From Vicinamibacterales bacterium (GTDB lineage Bacteria; Acidobacteriota; Vicinamibacteria; Vicinamibacterales; UBA8438), in contig OZ253543.1 in assembly GCA_965262555.1 (NCBI GenBank), positions 2,691,218 to 2,755,217 of the forward strand: DNA of 64,000 nucleotides, in the 5' to 3' direction. Positions 2 through 54,116 of this stretch are shown piece after piece (the first letter of the stretch is position 1; every line of letters begins with the position of its first letter). The translations under genes were made by a program, and so were the position numbers. The notes below the pieces were generated by a model that saw nothing but the letters and a program-made list of their open reading frames with translations, did not search any database and was not told the origin of the DNA.

Positions 2-607
2 GGCGGCGCCTGGCCGGGCGATCTTGACAAGAGCACGCTGGGCCACCCCGGCAAGTACACGTTCTGCATTGCCGAGCACGAGGAGGCGAGCCCCTGGGCG
101 CCCTACCACGTTGATCACGGCTACCGCGCCGAGGACAGCACCGTCTTCTGTATTGCCGCCGAAGGGCCGCACAGTGTCACCAACCACGTGGCACACGACC
201 CGGAAGGGATCCTCGACAGCATCGCGTCGGCCATGCGCACCATCGCGCACAACAACGCGGTCAGCGGCGGCTCATGCGCCGTCGTCATCGGCCCCGAACA
301 CGCCGCGACGATCGCGGCCAAGAGCTGGACGAAACGCGACGTTCGCGACTACCTCTGGAACGCCGCCCGCAATCCGTGGGAGGAGCTGACGTTCCACGAC
401 CGTTACGGGAAGATCTACAATCGCAACCTGCCGGCCGAGTATCCGCGTGAACCGGGGGCTCGCACGCCGGTCGTCCCCTCTCCCGACGACATCCACCTCT
501 TTGTCGCCGGCGGCGAATCCGGCCGGTTCTCCGCGTTCCTCCCCGGCTGGGGGCACATGTCGACGCCGGTGCTACGCGCAATCGAGGGGACGTCTCGGCA
601 CAACTGA
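2..607 (+). CDS. hypothetical protein, 5'-truncated by the window edge
   Basis: Frame 2 is open from nt 2 (hand translation GGAWPGDLDKSTLGHPGKYTFCIAEHEE...) through ORF 188..607. Composition is protein-like. Its stop overlaps the next ATG (TGATG at 605-609). Family not recognised. Confidence 0.55.
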   Translation, partial: GGAWPGDLDKSTLGHPGKYTFCIAEHEEASPWAPYHVDHGYRAEDSTVFCIAAEGPHSVTNHVAHDPEGILDSIASAMRTIAHNNAVSGGSCAVVIGPEHAATIAAKSWTKRDVRDYLWNAARNPWEELTFHDRYGKIYNRNLPAEYPREPGARTPVVPSPDDIHLFVAGGESGRFSAFLPGWGHMSTPVLRAIEGTSRHN

Positions 608-1155
608 TGGCCAGTGAGAGGCGCCTGCCGGACGACTGGATCGTCTACGACCCGCGCGGGACGGTCACCGCACAGCCGCGAGCACTGGCGCCGCGGCTGG
701 CGTCGCTCGACGGCATCCGCCTCGGTATCCTCGACAACACGAAGTGGAACGCCTCGAAGCTGCTGCGTGAAACGGTGGCGTGCCTCGGCGCCGAGATCGC
801 GTTCGCCCAGGTACGACGCTACGCGAAGGCGAGCTTCTCGCGTCCCGCCGAAGCGGACCTCCTCGATCGGATTGCGGCCGAGAACGACGCCGTTCTCACG
901 GCGATAGGCGATTGAGGGTCATGCACGTCGTGCAGTGTGCACGACGCGGTCGGCCTGGAAGAGCGGGGCATCCCCGTGGCGGTCATCGTGACCGATGCCT
1001 TCTTGCATGAAGCCGACGTCCAACGTACGGCGCTCGGCGCGGCGCGTCTCGCGCCGGTGGTCATCACTCACCCGCTCAGCACGCTGACGGATCAGGAGAT
1101 CGTCAGGAGAGCAAGGGCGGCAGCGGACGGGACGCAACGGGTCCTTACCGCGTAG
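607..1155 (+). CDS. UGSC-family selenoprotein (selenocysteine at in-frame UGA 913-915)
   Basis: ORFs 607..915 and 937..1155 are in the same frame (330 nt apart). The only stop between them is TGA 913-915. Read-through gives ...LTAIGD-U-GSCTSCSVHDAVGLEERGIPVAV.... U-G-S-C is the signature motif of the UGSC (seleno)protein family. A SECIS-like hairpin lies 10 nt downstream. Confidence 0.75.
926..946 (+). promoter_or_regulatory. putative bacterial SECIS stem-loop (recoding signal)
   Basis: Perfect inverted repeat CGTCGTGCA (926-934) / TGCACGACG (938-946) with loop GTG. It begins after a 10-nt spacer from UGA 913-915, the position expected for a SelB-binding hairpin. Confidence 0.55.
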
Positions 1156-1167
1156 CGTGGTCGAGAC

Positions 1168-1566
1168 CTACGGTCGAAGCTCGACAAAACCGGCGGCCTC
1201 GAAGGCTCCATCGAAAGCGAGCACGCTATGGATGCGGTTGGCCCGCATGAACGCGAAGCTGGTGGCGTCCACGAACGAAAACTCCCGCTCGTCGTGACGG
1301 CGCAGCCATCGGATGGCCGTTCGCTCGATGTCCTGATCGATCCAGGCGACCTGTATCCTGGGGCTCCCATCGAGCATTTCCAGAAACGTTACGGCAGAGC
1401 GATGGCCTGCCTTGCGGCGCAGATAGGTCCAGGTCTCGCCGCGGACCTGACTCGAGGTCACGAGGTTCTGGTTGGCATGCAGGAGATTAAGTTGCTTGGC
1501 CGCGTCGTGATGGACGTCACGGCTGTTGCGGAGGGCGACCCAGAACGAAGTGTCTACGAAGATCAT
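1168..1566 (-). CDS. vapC: type II toxin VapC (PIN-domain ribonuclease)
   Basis: MIFVDTSFWVAL... N-terminus with the acidic PIN residues (D5, E44, D100 region). Internal ATG at 1566 of the 277-aa ORF. The 4-nt ATGA overlaps the upstream antitoxin stop. Confidence 0.85.
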   Translation of the reverse strand: MIFVDTSFWVALRNSRDVHHDAAKQLNLLHANQNLVTSSQVRGETWTYLRRKAGHRSAVTFLEMLDGSPRIQVAWIDQDIERTAIRWLRRHDEREFSFVDATSFAFMRANRIHSVLAFDGAFEAAGFVELRP

Positions 1567-1775
1567 CGATAGACGACATCGTCCACCGGCTCTGGATCGA
1601 AGGCGTCCCCACCGACCCACCGGCCCAGCGGATCGTCTTCCAGCGCCGGCAATGACGCGATATTGCTCCGCACGAATCGGCGGATGAGTGCGGCCTTCGA
1701 GGAGCCCTCCTCGCGGGCCTGACGCTCCAGTGCCTCGTCCAGTTCCTCGTCGATCATGATCTGCAGGCGCTTCAT
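1563..1775 (-). CDS. vapB: ribbon-helix-helix (CopG/VapB-type) antitoxin
   Basis: MKRLQIMIDEELDEALERQAREEG... is a typical RHH N-terminus. It overlaps the vapC start. An alternative start lies at 1790 (MYPSL...). Confidence 0.75.
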   Translation of the reverse strand: MKRLQIMIDEELDEALERQAREEGSSKAALIRRFVRSNIASLPALEDDPLGRWVGGDAFDPEPVDDVVYR

Positions 1776-1818
1776 GAGTGAAGGATACATTACAAGGTCT
1801 ACCTATGTGTAAGCACTG

Positions 1819-3147
1819 GTGGTCCGCGTTGCGATCGACGGTGGCCGCGCCGGAGCTACCCCACGGTATGATGCGGCCGTGAGGGTCGAACTCGCCTACG
1901 GCCGGGGGCGGATGCCGGTCGACTTCCCCGACGGGCGGACGACGGTGATCGAGCCGTCCTACATCAACGGCCTGCCGGACGAGGCTGGCGCCATCCGCCA
2001 CATGCTCCGAATGCCGCTCGGGACGCCGCCCCTCGCCTCGCTCGTCACGCCTGACCAGAAGGTCGCGATCTCGGTCTGTGACATCACGCGCCCGATGCCG
2101 AGCGAGCGGCTGCTGCCGGTGCTGCTGGATGAACTGTCACACGTACCTGACGATCAGATCGTCATTCTGATCGCGGCCGGCACGCACCGCGCCAATACGC
2201 GCGACGAGCTGATCGACATGCTGGGCGAGCCGGTCGTCGACCGCTACCCCATCGTCAACCACAGTGCGTTCGACGACGACATGCTGGTCCACCTGGGCGA
2301 GGTGGAACCGCATGTTCCGGTCTGGCTGAACCGGCACTGGGTGGATGCGGATATCCGGATCACCACCGGCTTCGTCGAGCCGCACTTCTTCGCCGGCTTC
2401 AGCGGCGGGCCGAAACTGGTGGCGCCGGGGCTGGCCGGCTTCCGAACGACGATGCGGCTGCACGACGCCGAAATGATCGCCAGCCCGAATGCGCGCTGGG
2501 GCATCACCGAAGGCAATCCGATCCACGACGCCATTCGCCGGATCGCCGCCAAGGTAGGCGTCCACTTCAGCGTCGATGTCGCGATCAACCGCGACCGGGC
2601 GATCACGTCCGTCGCCGCCGGCGAGATCTTCGCCGTCCACAAGGCGATGACGTCGCGCGTCCGCGAGAGCGCGATGCAGGCGTTCGGCGCGCCGTTCGAC
2701 GTCGTCGTCACCACCAACAGCGGCTACCCCCTGGATCAGAATCTGTACCAGAGCGTCAAGGGGATGTCAGCCGCGGCGCAGGTGGTAAAGAAGGGGGGCG
2801 CCATCGTCTGCGCGGCGGCGTGCGCCGACGGCCTGCCGTCGCACGGCGAGTACAGGTCAATCCTCGAGGCGCGCGACTCCCCCAAGGCACTGCTCACGAT
2901 GATCTGCGCACCGAACCACAACCGGCACGATCAGTGGGAGGTCCAGATCCAGGCGCAGATTCAGCAGCGCGCGCAGGTCTTCCTGAGGGCGGACGGCCTG
3001 ACGGACGACGACATCCGGGCGGCGCACCTGACGCCGATCGACGACGTGGAGGAGACGGCGCGCGAGCAACTCGACCGCGCCGGGCCGGACGCGCGGCTCT
3101 GCGTCCTGCCGGAGGGACCGCAGACGATCCCGTATCTCGCCGGCTGA
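1819..3147 (+). CDS. larA: nickel-dependent lactate racemase family protein (LarA/DUF2088-like)
   Basis: Motifs seen: CDITRP, AAGTHR, GFVEPHFFAGFSGG, NSGYPLDQNLYQ. The start is uncertain (GTG 1819 or in-frame GTG 1879). Confidence 0.75.
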   Translation: MVRVAIDGGRAGATPRYDAAVRVELAYGRGRMPVDFPDGRTTVIEPSYINGLPDEAGAIRHMLRMPLGTPPLASLVTPDQKVAISVCDITRPMPSERLLPVLLDELSHVPDDQIVILIAAGTHRANTRDELIDMLGEPVVDRYPIVNHSAFDDDMLVHLGEVEPHVPVWLNRHWVDADIRITTGFVEPHFFAGFSGGPKLVAPGLAGFRTTMRLHDAEMIASPNARWGITEGNPIHDAIRRIAAKVGVHFSVDVAINRDRAITSVAAGEIFAVHKAMTSRVRESAMQAFGAPFDVVVTTNSGYPLDQNLYQSVKGMSAAAQVVKKGGAIVCAAACADGLPSHGEYRSILEARDSPKALLTMICAPNHNRHDQWEVQIQAQIQQRAQVFLRADGLTDDDIRAAHLTPIDDVEETAREQLDRAGPDARLCVLPEGPQTIPYLAG

Positions 3148-6089: not shown

Positions 6090-7322
6090 TCAGCGCCGGA
6101 CGTCGGGGAACCGCGGGCGGCCCGGCTCGAGCTGGGTGCCGAACGAATTGAGCGCGATCGACACGATCCGGTAGCCGCCCACCGTAATCACCAGGTCGAT
6201 CAGTTCCGGGGTGCCGTAGCGCTCCGCGAGCGCCTGCCAGGTCGCGTCCGAGACCGTACTGTTACGGTGCAGTCCGTCGGTCGCCCGGATGAGCGTTGCC
6301 TCGAACGGGTCCCAGCCGGGAGCGTCGGCCCCGACGGCAATCGCACGGATCTCGTCGTCGGTCATCCCGATGCGGCGCGCGGCGCGGACGTGCTGCGCCC
6401 ACTCGTACTCCGAGCCGCAGAGCCAGCCGATCCGGAGGATCAGGATCTCGCGGGCCCGGTCGGTCAGCGTCGAGCCGAGCCGGATGTAGGCGGACTGCAC
6501 CGAGCGCGGCCGGTAGAAGACCGGGTGACGCGCCAGCGTCGCATACAGGTTGAGTACCGGTCCGCCCTGCCCCTCCGGATCGAGCAGGCCGCGCACCTCG
6601 TCGGTCCACTCGCCGCGGGGGATGGGACCGAGCCGGGGCGCATCGAGCGGGGCCGGCGGCGGCCCCGGCCGTCCGATCGTGCGCCGCACATCGGCCGGGA
6701 AGCGCTCGCCGAACCGGTCATCCGGCGCCACGCCCAGACTGTTGGCCAGCATCGACAGCAGGATGTATTCGGCGCCGGTGAAAACGACGTCCAGCATCTG
6801 CTGCGCACTGAATCGCCCGGCCAGCACACTCCACGTCGCATCGCTCAGGAATGCGTCGCGGTACAGCTCATCGCCTGCGCGCACCAGCCAGACATCCCGG
6901 ACCCCCCAGCCCGCGTCCGGCCCTTCCGCGATCCGCTGCAGGTCGGCGTCCCCCAGGCCGAACCTGCGGGCCTCGGCCGCCAGGTCCGCCCACACCGCCT
7001 CCGAGCGGCAGAGCCACGCGACGCGCAGCCCAATCAGCAGCGCGTCGACCACCGGCACGGTCGATCGCTGCCGCAGGTAGGCGGCAAGCGGCCCCAGCCC
7101 GTGCAGCGCCGGCGGATGCTCCGCGAGCGTCCGGAGCAGCGTGGTCGCCTCTTCCGGCGCGATGCCCCACGTCTCGATGCCGGCGCGCACCTCGTCGGTC
7201 CACGCCGCGTCGTCCGGCGCGACCGGCGGCACGCGAACCTGTCCTGCCGCCGGATCGACCCCGCCAAGGAAGGCAGCGACCGCGATGGCAAGGGCGGCGG
7301 CAGCACGCATGCGCCCGATCAT
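6090..7322 (-). CDS. exported protein with two carboxymuconolactone decarboxylase (AhpD-like) domains
   Basis: Signal peptide, then two repeats each containing an LRxxWLCxSEYEW/AVWA-type CMD helix motif. Confidence 0.7.
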   Translation of the reverse strand: MIGRMRAAAALAIAVAAFLGGVDPAAGQVRVPPVAPDDAAWTDEVRAGIETWGIAPEEATTLLRTLAEHPPALHGLGPLAAYLRQRSTVPVVDALLIGLRVAWLCRSEAVWADLAAEARRFGLGDADLQRIAEGPDAGWGVRDVWLVRAGDELYRDAFLSDATWSVLAGRFSAQQMLDVVFTGAEYILLSMLANSLGVAPDDRFGERFPADVRRTIGRPGPPPAPLDAPRLGPIPRGEWTDEVRGLLDPEGQGGPVLNLYATLARHPVFYRPRSVQSAYIRLGSTLTDRAREILILRIGWLCGSEYEWAQHVRAARRIGMTDDEIRAIAVGADAPGWDPFEATLIRATDGLHRNSTVSDATWQALAERYGTPELIDLVITVGGYRIVSIALNSFGTQLEPGRPRFPDVRR

Positions 7323-51771: not shown

Positions 51772-52629
51772 TTATTCCTCGTTGGTTGGGCGCGCACCCT
51801 TCTGGCCGATCGTGTTCCGCAGCACGCCGACATGTTCCAGCTCGATCTCGACCACGTCGCCCGGCTGCATCGCCGTCGTGGCGCCCGGCGTGCCGGTGAA
51901 GATCATGTCGCCCGGCTCGAGCGTGACGTACCGGCTGATGTAGCTCACCAGGAACTCCGGACTGAAGAGCAGATCGCTGGTCCGCTGCGACTGCTTCACC
52001 TCGCCATTGACGCGGGTCTGCAGCAGCAAGTCGTTGTAGTTCACGCCGTGCGCCATCACCGGCCCGACCGGTCCGAACGTGTCCGCGCCCTTGGCGCGGA
52101 ACCACTGCAGGTCGTTGCCCTGCCATTGCCGCTCGCTGATGTCGTTGCCCGGCGCAACGGCGAAGATGTAGTCAGCCGCCTCCTCGACCGGTACGTTGCG
52201 CGCCGTCCGCCCGATGATCAGCACCAGCTCCCCCTCGAAGTGGAGATCGGTGGCGTCCTCGTAGTAGGCGACGGTCGCCTCGTGTCCGATGAGCGACGTC
52301 GCGTGCTTGTCGAACAGGCCCGGCTCGACCGGCGGCGTGCGCCCGTCGAGGTGACTGCGGTAGTTGAAGCCGGCCGCCACCACCTTCCGCGGCTCGGTCG
52401 GGGGGAGGAGCGTGACGTCGCCAAGCGTTACGGTGACGCCGGTGCGCGACGGCGACTCGAACACGCTGCCCTCGATCTGATGGATCGTCTCGCCTTCCAG
52501 CTCGCCGTACGAGACGACGCCGCGGTGCTCGTAGCGAAGGTACTTCGTTCCCTCCTGGGCGGCGACCGGCGTCCCCGTCGCCAGCAGAATCGCCGCCACC
52601 AACGTCGCGACGACACTAATGCGTCTCAT
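51772..52629 (-). CDS. fumarylacetoacetate hydrolase (FAH) family protein with signal-like N-terminus
   Basis: G.NY..H, EGEL..iIG, D.S.R and GD.i.TGTP blocks. N-terminal MRRISVVATLVAAILLATGTPVAAQ. Confidence 0.85.
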   Translation of the reverse strand: MRRISVVATLVAAILLATGTPVAAQEGTKYLRYEHRGVVSYGELEGETIHQIEGSVFESPSRTGVTVTLGDVTLLPPTEPRKVVAAGFNYRSHLDGRTPPVEPGLFDKHATSLIGHEATVAYYEDATDLHFEGELVLIIGRTARNVPVEEAADYIFAVAPGNDISERQWQGNDLQWFRAKGADTFGPVGPVMAHGVNYNDLLLQTRVNGEVKQSQRTSDLLFSPEFLVSYISRYVTLEPGDMIFTGTPGATTAMQPGDVVEIELEHVGVLRNTIGQKGARPTNEE

Positions 52630-52778
52630 GGTTACTCCTCCTCGCCAGGCGGCTGCACTGACACGAACTGCCGGAGAAGCGTAGCATGCAGCATGCTATT
52701 CTGCCTGTTGGGGCAGGCGCGCAGGCCGGGCGGCACGGCGTTGCGCCACGGGGCGCAGCCGGCACGCCAGCACCGCCG

Positions 52779-54116
52779 ATGACCACGACCGCCAGCTTCC
52801 TGCCGCGCGATCAAGCCCATCTGATCCATCCGCTGCACGACCCGTCGCTCCACCGCGAGGCACTGGTCTGGGCCAGGGGCGAGGGTGCCATCCTGACCGA
52901 CGCCGACGGCCGCGAGTACATCGACGGCCTCGCCGGTCTCTGGAACGTCACCGCCGGCCACGGCCGGACGGAGCTGGCCGAGGCCATGCGCTCGCAGGCG
53001 ACGGAGCTCGCCTACGTCTCCGGGTACGCCGGCAGCTCCAACCCGCGCGCCATCGAACTCGCCGAGCGCCTGTCCGCGCTCTGCTACCCATCCATCAATC
53101 ACTTCTTCTTCACGAGCGGCGGAGGCGAAGCAACGGAGAGCAGCATCAAGATGGCGCGCGCCGTCTGGAAGCTGCGCGGCCGGCCGTCGAAGACCAAGGT
53201 GATTTCGCGCGTCGACGCCTATCACGGCGTGACCCTGGCGGCGATGAGCGCCACCGGCATCAGCCGCTACTGGCCGCTGTTCGAGCCGCGCGTCCCGGGG
53301 TTCGTCCACATCGCGGCGCCGGATCCGTACCGCTACGCGGCGCCGGCAGGCGCGAGCGTCGGTGTCGCCGCCGCCAACGAGCTCGAACGGGCAATCGAGC
53401 GGGAGGGCGCCGACACGGTGGCGCTGTTCATCGCCGAGCCGGTGCAGGGGGCGGGCGGCGTGATCGTCCCGCCGAACGACTACTTCCCCCGCATCCGCGA
53501 GATCTGCGACCGGCACGACGTGCTCTTCGCCGCCGACGAGGTGATCACCGGCTTCGGCCGGACCGGCCGCCTCTTCGCACTCGACCATTGGGGAATCGAG
53601 CCGGACATCGTCCAGTTCGCCAAGGGGATCACCTCGGGCTACTTCCCCTTCGGCGGCATCGGCATCAGCGACGACCTGGCAGCAACGATCGACGGAGCGG
53701 GCGAGCCGTGGATGCATGCCTACACCTACAGCGCGCATCCGGTCGGCTGTGCCGTGGCGCTCCGCACGCTCCGGATCATCGAGGAGGAACGCTTTCCGGA
53801 ACAGGCCGCGGCCAAGGGACGCGCGCTGCTGGACAGCCTGCATGCCGCGCTGGACGACCATCCCCACGTCGGCAACATCCGGGGCAAGGGCCTGATGTGC
53901 GCCGTCGAGCTAGTGGAGGACCGCGCCACGAAACGGCCGTTCCCGGCCGACCGCAGCATCGGCGCCGCGCTGCTTCGCGAGACAATCTCCCGCGGCCTGG
54001 TGAGCCGGACCAAGGGCGACACGTACCTGCTCGCCCCCCCGATCGTCACCACCGACGATCACCTGGTTCGCATCGTGGAGATCCTCGCCGACTCCGTCCG
54101 CGCCGTCCTGGGATGA
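52779..54116 (+). CDS. class III (omega) aminotransferase
   Basis: SGGEATE, DEVITGFGRTG and FAKGITSGY (PLP lysine) blocks. Confidence 0.9.
   Translation: MTTTASFLPRDQAHLIHPLHDPSLHREALVWARGEGAILTDADGREYIDGLAGLWNVTAGHGRTELAEAMRSQATELAYVSGYAGSSNPRAIELAERLSALCYPSINHFFFTSGGGEATESSIKMARAVWKLRGRPSKTKVISRVDAYHGVTLAAMSATGISRYWPLFEPRVPGFVHIAAPDPYRYAAPAGASVGVAAANELERAIEREGADTVALFIAEPVQGAGGVIVPPNDYFPRIREICDRHDVLFAADEVITGFGRTGRLFALDHWGIEPDIVQFAKGITSGYFPFGGIGISDDLAATIDGAGEPWMHAYTYSAHPVGCAVALRTLRIIEEERFPEQAAAKGRALLDSLHAALDDHPHVGNIRGKGLMCAVELVEDRATKRPFPADRSIGAALLRETISRGLVSRTKGDTYLLAPPIVTTDDHLVRIVEILADSVRAVLG

Follow-up and report, generated by a model that had tools for sequence, protein, structure and literature searches.

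The window analysed here is a 64,000-nt stretch of a Vicinamibacterales genome (contig OZ253543.1, positions 2,691,218 to 2,755,217), which begins inside a gene of a nameless protein family, referred to below as the partner, and continues directly into two open reading frames (ORFs) separated by a UGA codon. Judged by its sequence, frame 607-1155 is one gene, encoding a selenoprotein of the UGSC family, and its internal UGA is almost certainly decoded as selenocysteine (Sec). The family is already catalogued and a feature of this kind is not new. The conservation of the partner gene and its fusions to UGSC suggest that the two very probably form an obligate pair, and the pair is best explained overall as what is probably a thioredoxin-dependent (seleno)reductase. 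The features on which the argument turns are the following:

2-607, forward strand: 3' part of the partner gene (201 codons, stop TGA 605-607)
607-1155, forward strand: UGSC-family selenoprotein gene (182 amino acids including Sec103, stop TAG 1153-1155)
913-915, forward strand: in-frame UGA, the predicted selenocysteine codon (residue 103)
913-933, forward strand: codons of the U-G-S-C-T-S-C centre (Sec103, Cys106, Cys109)
926-946, forward strand: predicted bacterial selenocysteine insertion sequence (SECIS) hairpin, with a 9-bp stem and the apical loop GUG at 935-937

Frame 607-1155 contains a single internal stop, UGA 913-915, at codon 103 of 182. It reads MASERRLPDDW...LTAIGD up to this TGA, continues with GSCTSCSVHDAVGLEERGIP... 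(directly after the TGA the frame reads GSCTSCSVHDAVGLEE...) and ends with the TAG at 1153-1155. The original prediction, made from the letters alone, had joined the two split ORFs into one frame of 182 amino acids with the centre U-G-S-C-x-x-C and had pointed out a TGATG overlap with the upstream gene. Every one of these coordinates holds: the ATG at 607-609 and the partner stop at 605-607 have one base in common (cTGATGg), the A of the TGA being the first letter of the start codon.

If the stop is replaced by cysteine, the resulting translation matches NF041046, "UGSC family (seleno)protein," with 147.2 bits (cut-off 125; profile positions 2-146 of 147) and Pfam family PF24696 with 192.4 bits (cut-off 25; positions 2-171 of 172, that is, end to end). 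The assignment to the UGSC family, which had been proposed from the motif, is thereby borne out by the curated cut-offs of both profiles. A homology search returned contiguous Cys homologues of 180-205 amino acids carrying AIGD-C-GSC from Paralcaligenes, Achromobacter, Cupriavidus, Ottowia, Amycolatopsis and Saccharopolyspora, several of which are already named "UGSC family (seleno)protein" by NCBI. All full-length homologues have a Cys in the column of the UGA, as had been expected for residue 103, and the C/U, G, S and C of the motif are invariant in both alignments (A4 and A5). Many other database relatives are fragments of 102-104 amino acids, 75-99% identical and all ending in ...AIGD; we therefore regard them as Sec-type proteins that gene callers have truncated at the UGA. 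The expectation that gene callers would split the gene is correct for plain ORF callers, but NCBI PGAP names the family.

A scan of species-representative genomes yielded 80 loci; further counts come from the fetched loci. In the 80 genomes, the tblastn matches cover residues 1 to ~180 across the UGA. The hosts are mostly Vicinamibacterales (Acidobacteriota), with others among the Alphaproteobacteria, Nitrospinota, Chloroflexota, Methylomirabilales and Entotheonella. The aligned codon is TGA, followed by GSCTSC, in each of the 86 loci fetched, and the frame stays open for 79-94 codons beyond it. Over 60 codons past the UGA, the differences from the window amount to 11.8, 7.6 and 26.0 at codon positions 1, 2 and 3, respectively. 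This concentration of divergence in the third position indicates that the two halves are one gene under purifying selection. Over 10.9 kb, the window itself shares 99.5-99.7% identity with four metagenome contigs at ENA that come from independent assemblies; one of them (ctg495845 of ERZ26167216, 99.6%), in which L002 is located, has a length of 3.74 Mb. UGSC-family genes were also seen on megaplasmids of the haloarchaea Natrinema, Haloterrigena, Halalkalicoccus and Halorientalis (NZ_CP084884.1, NZ_CP100446.1, NC_013744.1, NC_014299.1 and NZ_CP095483.1), so the family is not restricted to bacteria.

For Sec insertion in bacteria, SelB with Sec-tRNA(Sec) is recruited by a hairpin located 3' of the UGA. 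In the window, a perfect stem formed by CGTCGTGCA (926-934) and TGCACGACG (938-946) encloses the loop GTG (935-937), with a gap of 10 nt from the UGA to the stem and of 19 nt to the loop. The calculated folding energy is -13.3 kcal/mol for the hairpin alone and -31.8 kcal/mol for a 71-nt region (z = -2.3). A review of prokaryotic selenoproteomes (2026, PMC13188914) describes bacterial SECIS elements by a loop of 3-9 nt, an upper stem of 4-16 bp, a G in the first two loop positions, a UGA-to-loop distance of 16-37 nt and a minimum free energy (MFE) of at most -7.5 kcal/mol. The hairpin of the window lies within all of these limits (GUG, 9 bp, 19 nt, -13.3 kcal/mol), and the 9-bp stem, GUG loop and 10-nt spacer had been predicted exactly. 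Like the bacterial SECIS consensus, with fdhF of E. coli as the type case, it is a stable stem-loop directly 3' of the UGA within the coding region, whose apical loop begins with G-U and lies 19 nt from the UGA. It differs from the type case in its 3-nt loop (5 nt in some clades) and in its perfect 9-bp stem without a bulged U; its sequence is unrelated to that of the fdhF element, and the triplets encoding the active-site peptide themselves form its stem. We propose, on comparative evidence, that hairpin 926-946 would recruit SelB and Sec-tRNA(Sec), by which UGA 913-915 would be read as selenocysteine.

At the 68% G+C of the window hairpins are commonplace, with 6 perfect ones of at least 9 bp observed against ~6.8 expected by chance, and the argument therefore rests on the position and conservation of this hairpin and not on its existence. 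The chance expectation for such a hairpin inside the ~20-nt SECIS window of a given UGA is ~0.002. Without exception, the 119 Sec-type UGSC genes of the fetched loci (87 of this paralogue and 32 of a second one) have retained the UGA, the open frame behind it and the hairpin; for the 42 nt past the UGA their median MFE is -19.9 kcal/mol. Among the Cys-type genes, none of five has an equivalent stem; their MFE is -8 to -13 kcal/mol and the peptide has changed from TSCS-x-HD to forms such as CSAC-x-RD. Pairing is possible in 91.5% of the cells of the hairpin alignment, compared to 8-48% when the partner column is slid, and one pair has changed from G-C to A-U in 2 sequences (a compensatory change) and to G-U in 10.

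Several observations weigh against reading the UGA as Sec. Five of the nine hairpin pairs are invariant and only 2 cells are changed on both sides, so that covariation is weak, and the covariation measures do not rise above those of shuffled controls. Moreover, the stem coincides with the codons of the conserved T-S-C-S-x-H-D, and constraints on the protein and on the RNA are not fully separable. As the covariation is not significant, we use the contrast between Sec-type and Cys-type genes as the stronger argument. Genes for tRNA-Sec, selA, selB and selD were not found within the 64-kb window, the only tRNA gene of which is a tRNA-Pro, and with SelA, SelB and SelD as tblastn queries the window and all fetched loci gave self hits only.

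An Rfam scan of positions 500-1400 gave only sub-threshold chance matches, Rfam being without a bacterial SECIS family. Scanning the window for further genes with an in-frame UGA gave no convincing candidate, although the scan was weak, its thresholds having missed the UGSC gene too.

Genes of the Sec machinery lie beside the UGSC module in three alphaproteobacterial metagenome-assembled genomes:

L048, 6719-6813: Sec-machinery locus with tRNA-Sec directly upstream of the partner gene
L080, 45-140: Sec-machinery locus with tRNA-Sec directly upstream of the partner gene
L082, 518-5147: Sec-machinery locus with tRNA-Sec ~1.7 kb upstream of the partner gene

L082 also carries selA (TIGR00474, 598 bits) and selB (TIGR00475, 454 bits) near the module, and in L048 a gene for an oxidoreductase-SelD fusion (TIGR00476, 269 bits) directly follows UGSC. 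In these three genomes, the partner-UGSC pair may be a main client of the Sec machinery.

The partner gene, cut by the start of the window, has 364 codons in the near-identical contigs (L002, 8907-10001). Its protein has no sequence match in Pfam, NCBIfam or PDB, and all named homologues are labelled "hypothetical protein." The gene is located directly upstream of Sec-type UGSC in ~70 of the 80 species loci (L029, L070 and L085 are among those without an adjacent partner) and adjacent to UGSC in 6 of 6 operons of the Cys type from bacteria in culture. Across loci, the amino acid identity of the partner is 68-89%, compared to 57-82% for UGSC. When 1.84 billion representative proteins were searched with a profile of the partner, 5,513 clusters (at 50% identity) were retrieved at E <= 1e-3 and 3,812 at E <= 1e-10, the best 148 of which (P0241-P0388) we examined. 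Among these 148, UGSC is fused in front of the partner in 27, either as contiguous Cys forms of ~530-570 amino acids or as forms of ~405-455 amino acids that start just past the UGA; 5 have the reverse order, partner then UGSC, and end in ...GD at the UGA; tandem duplications of the partner also occur. One cluster (P0298) joins the partner to a C-terminal domain resembling thioredoxin reductase, and another (P0353) combines UGSC, partner and the catalytic domain of a ferredoxin:thioredoxin reductase. That fusions exist in both orders argues strongly for UGSC and partner acting as one unit. The suggestion that the upstream gene encodes a functional partner, drawn at first from the start-stop overlap, is thus strongly supported by synteny and gene fusion; the check proposed with it, conservation of the neighbour, is answered by the locus counts above. 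A further candidate fusion, P0235, was rejected as a frameshifted read-through, genuine fusions having been found elsewhere. A fusion termed "UGSC/Unknown_1" was described by Zhang and Gladyshev (2008). Unknown_1 is probably the partner family; a search of the dataset of that study gave no motif matches.

The C-terminus of the partner reads C-x-x-G-x-C-x-L in almost every lineage and also in Cys-type operons, and by analogy this C-x-x-G-x-C tail could serve as a mobile redox arm. In the lineage of the window, a 1-nt insertion (frameshift) and a deletion at 560-607 have replaced the tail by the ending AIEGTSRHN and moved the stop onto the ATG of UGSC.

The fold of UGSC was approached by an AlphaFold2 model of the Cys homologue P0002, which is 64% identical to the protein of the window. 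The model (predicted local distance difference test score, pLDDT, 88.4) shows a flavodoxin-like beta-alpha-beta arrangement in a three-layer alpha/beta/alpha sandwich, with the C/U-G-S-C motif at the N-terminus of a helix that follows a beta-strand. Its neighbours in the PDB are generic (TIR domain, flavodoxin, azoreductase and lumazine synthase; template modelling (TM) scores 0.4-0.5), and UGSC has neither a sequence match in the PDB nor a match to a Pfam family of the thioredoxin group. With the thioredoxin-fold selenoproteins of the UxxC/CxxC type (thioredoxin-, peroxiredoxin- and DsbA-like), UGSC shares the U/CxxC at the start of a helix, the interchange of Sec and Cys among homologues and, probably, reduction by the thioredoxin system. 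It differs from them in the flavodoxin-like fold predicted for it and in having a dedicated, often fused partner. The partner was also modelled with AlphaFold2 (pLDDT 81, predicted TM score 0.85). Class I fumarate hydratase and cyanuric acid hydrolase appeared as low-TM Foldseek matches to it and were not used for function.

The neighbourhoods of the module point to a redox function. The gene for thioredoxin reductase, trxB, lies immediately after UGSC in Saccharopolyspora, in Amycolatopsis and on a Roseovarius plasmid. In Cupriavidus it comes two genes later, in a UGSC operon that also contains a thioredoxin gene. The two trxB genes tested, those of Saccharopolyspora and Cupriavidus, score 373-378 bits against TIGR01292 (cut-off 343). 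A CoA-transferase of family III is encoded beside the module in 5 of 6 Cys-type loci, as well as in the operon of the Nitrospinota type. Other neighbours of the module encode an acyl-CoA dehydrogenase, a FadB-like protein, an FAA-hydrolase, an aminotransferase, a LysR regulator and carboxylate transporters. The CoA-transferase, FadB-like, acyl-CoA dehydrogenase, LysR and carboxylate-transporter genes together point to a CoA-activated carboxylic acid as substrate.

We propose that UGSC and partner would form a two-component thiol/selenol-dependent reductase. UGSC would be its small domain, with Sec103-x-x-Cys106(-x-x-Cys109) at the N-terminal end of a helix, and the Sec/Cys pair would cycle between the selenol/thiol and the selenenylsulfide state. 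Electrons would pass from NAD(P)H to thioredoxin reductase, possibly on to thioredoxin, and would re-reduce UGSC, which would either hand reducing equivalents to the partner or perform its chemistry there. The partner would act on the substrate, possibly a CoA-activated carboxylate. Of the parts of this proposal, a thioredoxin-linked redox relay has somewhat better than even chances, and a CoA ester or carboxylate as substrate is a tentative suggestion. Equally tentative is the wider proposal of a widespread, previously unrecognised, thioredoxin-driven two-component (seleno)reductase that would be an aerobic or environmental counterpart of the reductases for glycine and D-proline, with a CoA-activated carboxylic acid as its substrate and a partner whose fold is without a solved relative.

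A number of points speak against the reductase proposal. The functional assignment is built on gene context, in which the associations of genes are observed and the chemistry is deduced from them. The genes for thioredoxin reductase, thioredoxin and CoA-transferase are not adjacent in the lineage of the window, and the partner of this lineage is without the two-cysteine tail. The partner model has no convincing neighbour in the PDB (Foldseek, TM <= 0.31). Finally, the likeness of UGSC to the glycine reductase proteins falls far short of family membership, with 19.3 bits against TIGR01917 (cut-off 602.2) and 17.5 bits against NF040794 (cut-off 800).

The same likeness underlies a variant of the proposal in which UGSC would be the catalytic selenium subunit, comparable to PrdB or GrdB, and the partner the substrate-binding one, comparable to PrdA or GrdE, with Sec attacking a carbon of the substrate. 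Residues 88-158 of UGSC show weak hidden Markov model (HMM) similarity to positions 332-396 of GrdB of glycine reductase and also to GrdF of sarcosine reductase (E = 4e-4 and 1e-3), and proteins of the PrdB family, too, contain UxxC (Table 2 of PMC2398784). As in GrdB, GrdF and PrdB (PF07355), the UxxC Sec centre is accompanied by a second, larger subunit. Thioredoxin-system genes occur in the same operons in several hosts, as they are generally known to do in glycine reductase operons. UGSC differs from these proteins in its length of ~180 amino acids, compared to 240-436, and in a partner family that is unrelated by sequence; the partner has no similarity to the GrdE or PrdA families at E <= 1, homologues of GrdA, GrdE and PrdA do not accompany UGSC and a GrdA-like gene is missing from its vicinity. 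Most of the hosts are aerobes, largely of soil and marine lineages, and not amino acid-fermenting anaerobes. The PF07355 profile does not match the UGSC read-through, and with scores this far under the family cut-offs UGSC, by sequence comparison, resembles GrdB, GrdF and PrdB without being a member of their families. We consider the variant unlikely.

As another alternative, Sec/Cys-x-x-Cys-x-x-Cys (U/CxxCxxC) would supply the ligands of an Fe-S centre, or of a metal or metalloid, in a subunit for electron transfer or metal handling. Three or more invariant, closely spaced residues (C/U, +3, and +6 or +7) would suit such a site, CxxCxxC generally resembles cluster-binding motifs, and the ferredoxin:thioredoxin reductase domain of the one fusion contains a 4Fe-4S cluster. 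Yet the dedicated neighbours and fusions are disulfide reductases (thioredoxin reductase, thioredoxin and a CxxC domain resembling ResA), the part of selenoprotein B around its Sec, which comes closest by sequence, is not known to bind metal, and genes for metal transport or cluster assembly do not recur in the neighbourhoods examined, all of which makes a metal-binding function rather improbable.

Only a slight chance is left for UGSC as a stand-alone thioredoxin-like antioxidant or thiol oxidoreductase with the upstream gene as a mere neighbour: UxxC is typical of thiol oxidoreductases, a thioredoxin-like fold was suggested by Zhang and Gladyshev (2008) and the partner is not adjacent in a few loci, but it is adjacent in the great majority of Sec-type loci and in all six Cys-type operons, is better conserved than UGSC itself and is fused to it in both orders, and the best PDB neighbours of the flavodoxin-like model are not thioredoxins. 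That the UGA is an ordinary stop, with 607-915 and 937-1155 as two small genes or with a nonsense mutation or sequencing error between them, is scarcely credible: gene callers do give fragments of 102 and 59-74 amino acids, the upstream gene also terminates in TGA and Sec machinery was not seen in the window, but the TGA recurs at the same codon in every aligned locus across several phyla with an open frame and third position-dominated divergence beyond it, contiguous homologues have Cys there, one HMM spans the read-through end to end, the downstream hairpin is specific to Sec-type genes and independent assemblies repeat the sequence.

Compared to the UGSC family as catalogued (NF041046; PF24696), which was first noted by Zhang and Gladyshev (2007-2008) as "UGSC-containing protein," the gene of the window agrees in its full-length match, the position of the motif, the existence of Sec and Cys forms and a SECIS element directly after the UGA. 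Nothing essential is different; particular to this case are the Vicinamibacterales host and two Sec paralogues ~3.5 kb apart, together with a partner gene that, in this lineage, runs into the start codon of UGSC and whose product is without the C-terminal pair of cysteines.

The second paralogue is seen in the near-identical contigs, in which the region just upstream of the window contains a fusion of a CxxC domain to a partner paralogue, the second Sec-type UGSC, a FadB-like gene (enoyl-CoA hydratase/3-hydroxyacyl-CoA dehydrogenase) and then the partner. Two of these upstream features (in L002) and three that lie downstream of UGSC in the window have the following positions:

L002, 3400-5061: fusion of a thiol-disulfide oxidoreductase domain to a partner paralogue (553 amino acids)
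L002, 6178-6711: second Sec-UGSC paralogue (176 amino acids, ALAD-U-GSCTSCSVHD, NF041046 151.7 bits)
1168-1566, reverse strand: PIN-domain toxin
1563-1790, reverse strand: RHH antitoxin
1819-3147, forward strand: LarA-type nickel-pincer 2-hydroxyacid racemase (NF033504 517 bits, cut-off 460; Lar_N, LarA_C)

The second paralogue, ~3.4 kb upstream of the window start, has the same SECIS hairpin and was seen in 32 fetched loci. The 553-amino acid fusion carries an N-terminal C-A-A-C motif (AhpC-TSA, ResA-like), is 42-45% identical in its partner-paralogue part and, in several Vicinamibacterales, is encoded close to the second UGSC paralogue. The PIN/RHH pair is an insertion that separates UGSC from the LarA-like gene, which in many relatives comes straight after UGSC. 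LarA follows UGSC in most of ~60 loci of Vicinamibacterales and Acidobacteria and in no locus of other phyla, and by these gene positions its link to the UGSC system appears to be an association only. About 50 kb from UGSC, genes for an FAA-hydrolase and a class III aminotransferase stand side by side (51772-54116). Both families also flank the Nitrospinota-type module, and this is probably a coincidence. A split CMD-family gene in another contig (L001, 15484-16715) was considered as a Sec gene and rejected, the split being a frameshift without a UGA. The gene is intact, with 410 amino acids, in the window (6090-7322) and in L002, and the split in L001 probably reflects an error of assembly or variation between strains.

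The selenoprotein call itself is correct but will not surprise a specialist; what adds to it is the association with the partner together with the thioredoxin link. For annotation, the consequence is that the selenoproteomes of Acidobacteriota and other soil lineages are under-counted, as almost all of the metagenome assemblies examined have the gene split by ORF callers. Since 2007 the UGSC family has carried the label "function unknown," although it is among the most abundant selenoproteins of ocean and freshwater surveys. The partner link, the thioredoxin and CoA-transferase neighbours and the cultured Cys-type hosts (Cupriavidus, Achromobacter, Saccharopolyspora, Amycolatopsis and Roseovarius) make its function approachable by experiment. 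If true, the reductase reading would assign a function both to one of the most abundant uncharacterised selenoprotein families in metagenomes from water and soil and to a Pfam-less family of >5,000 clusters.

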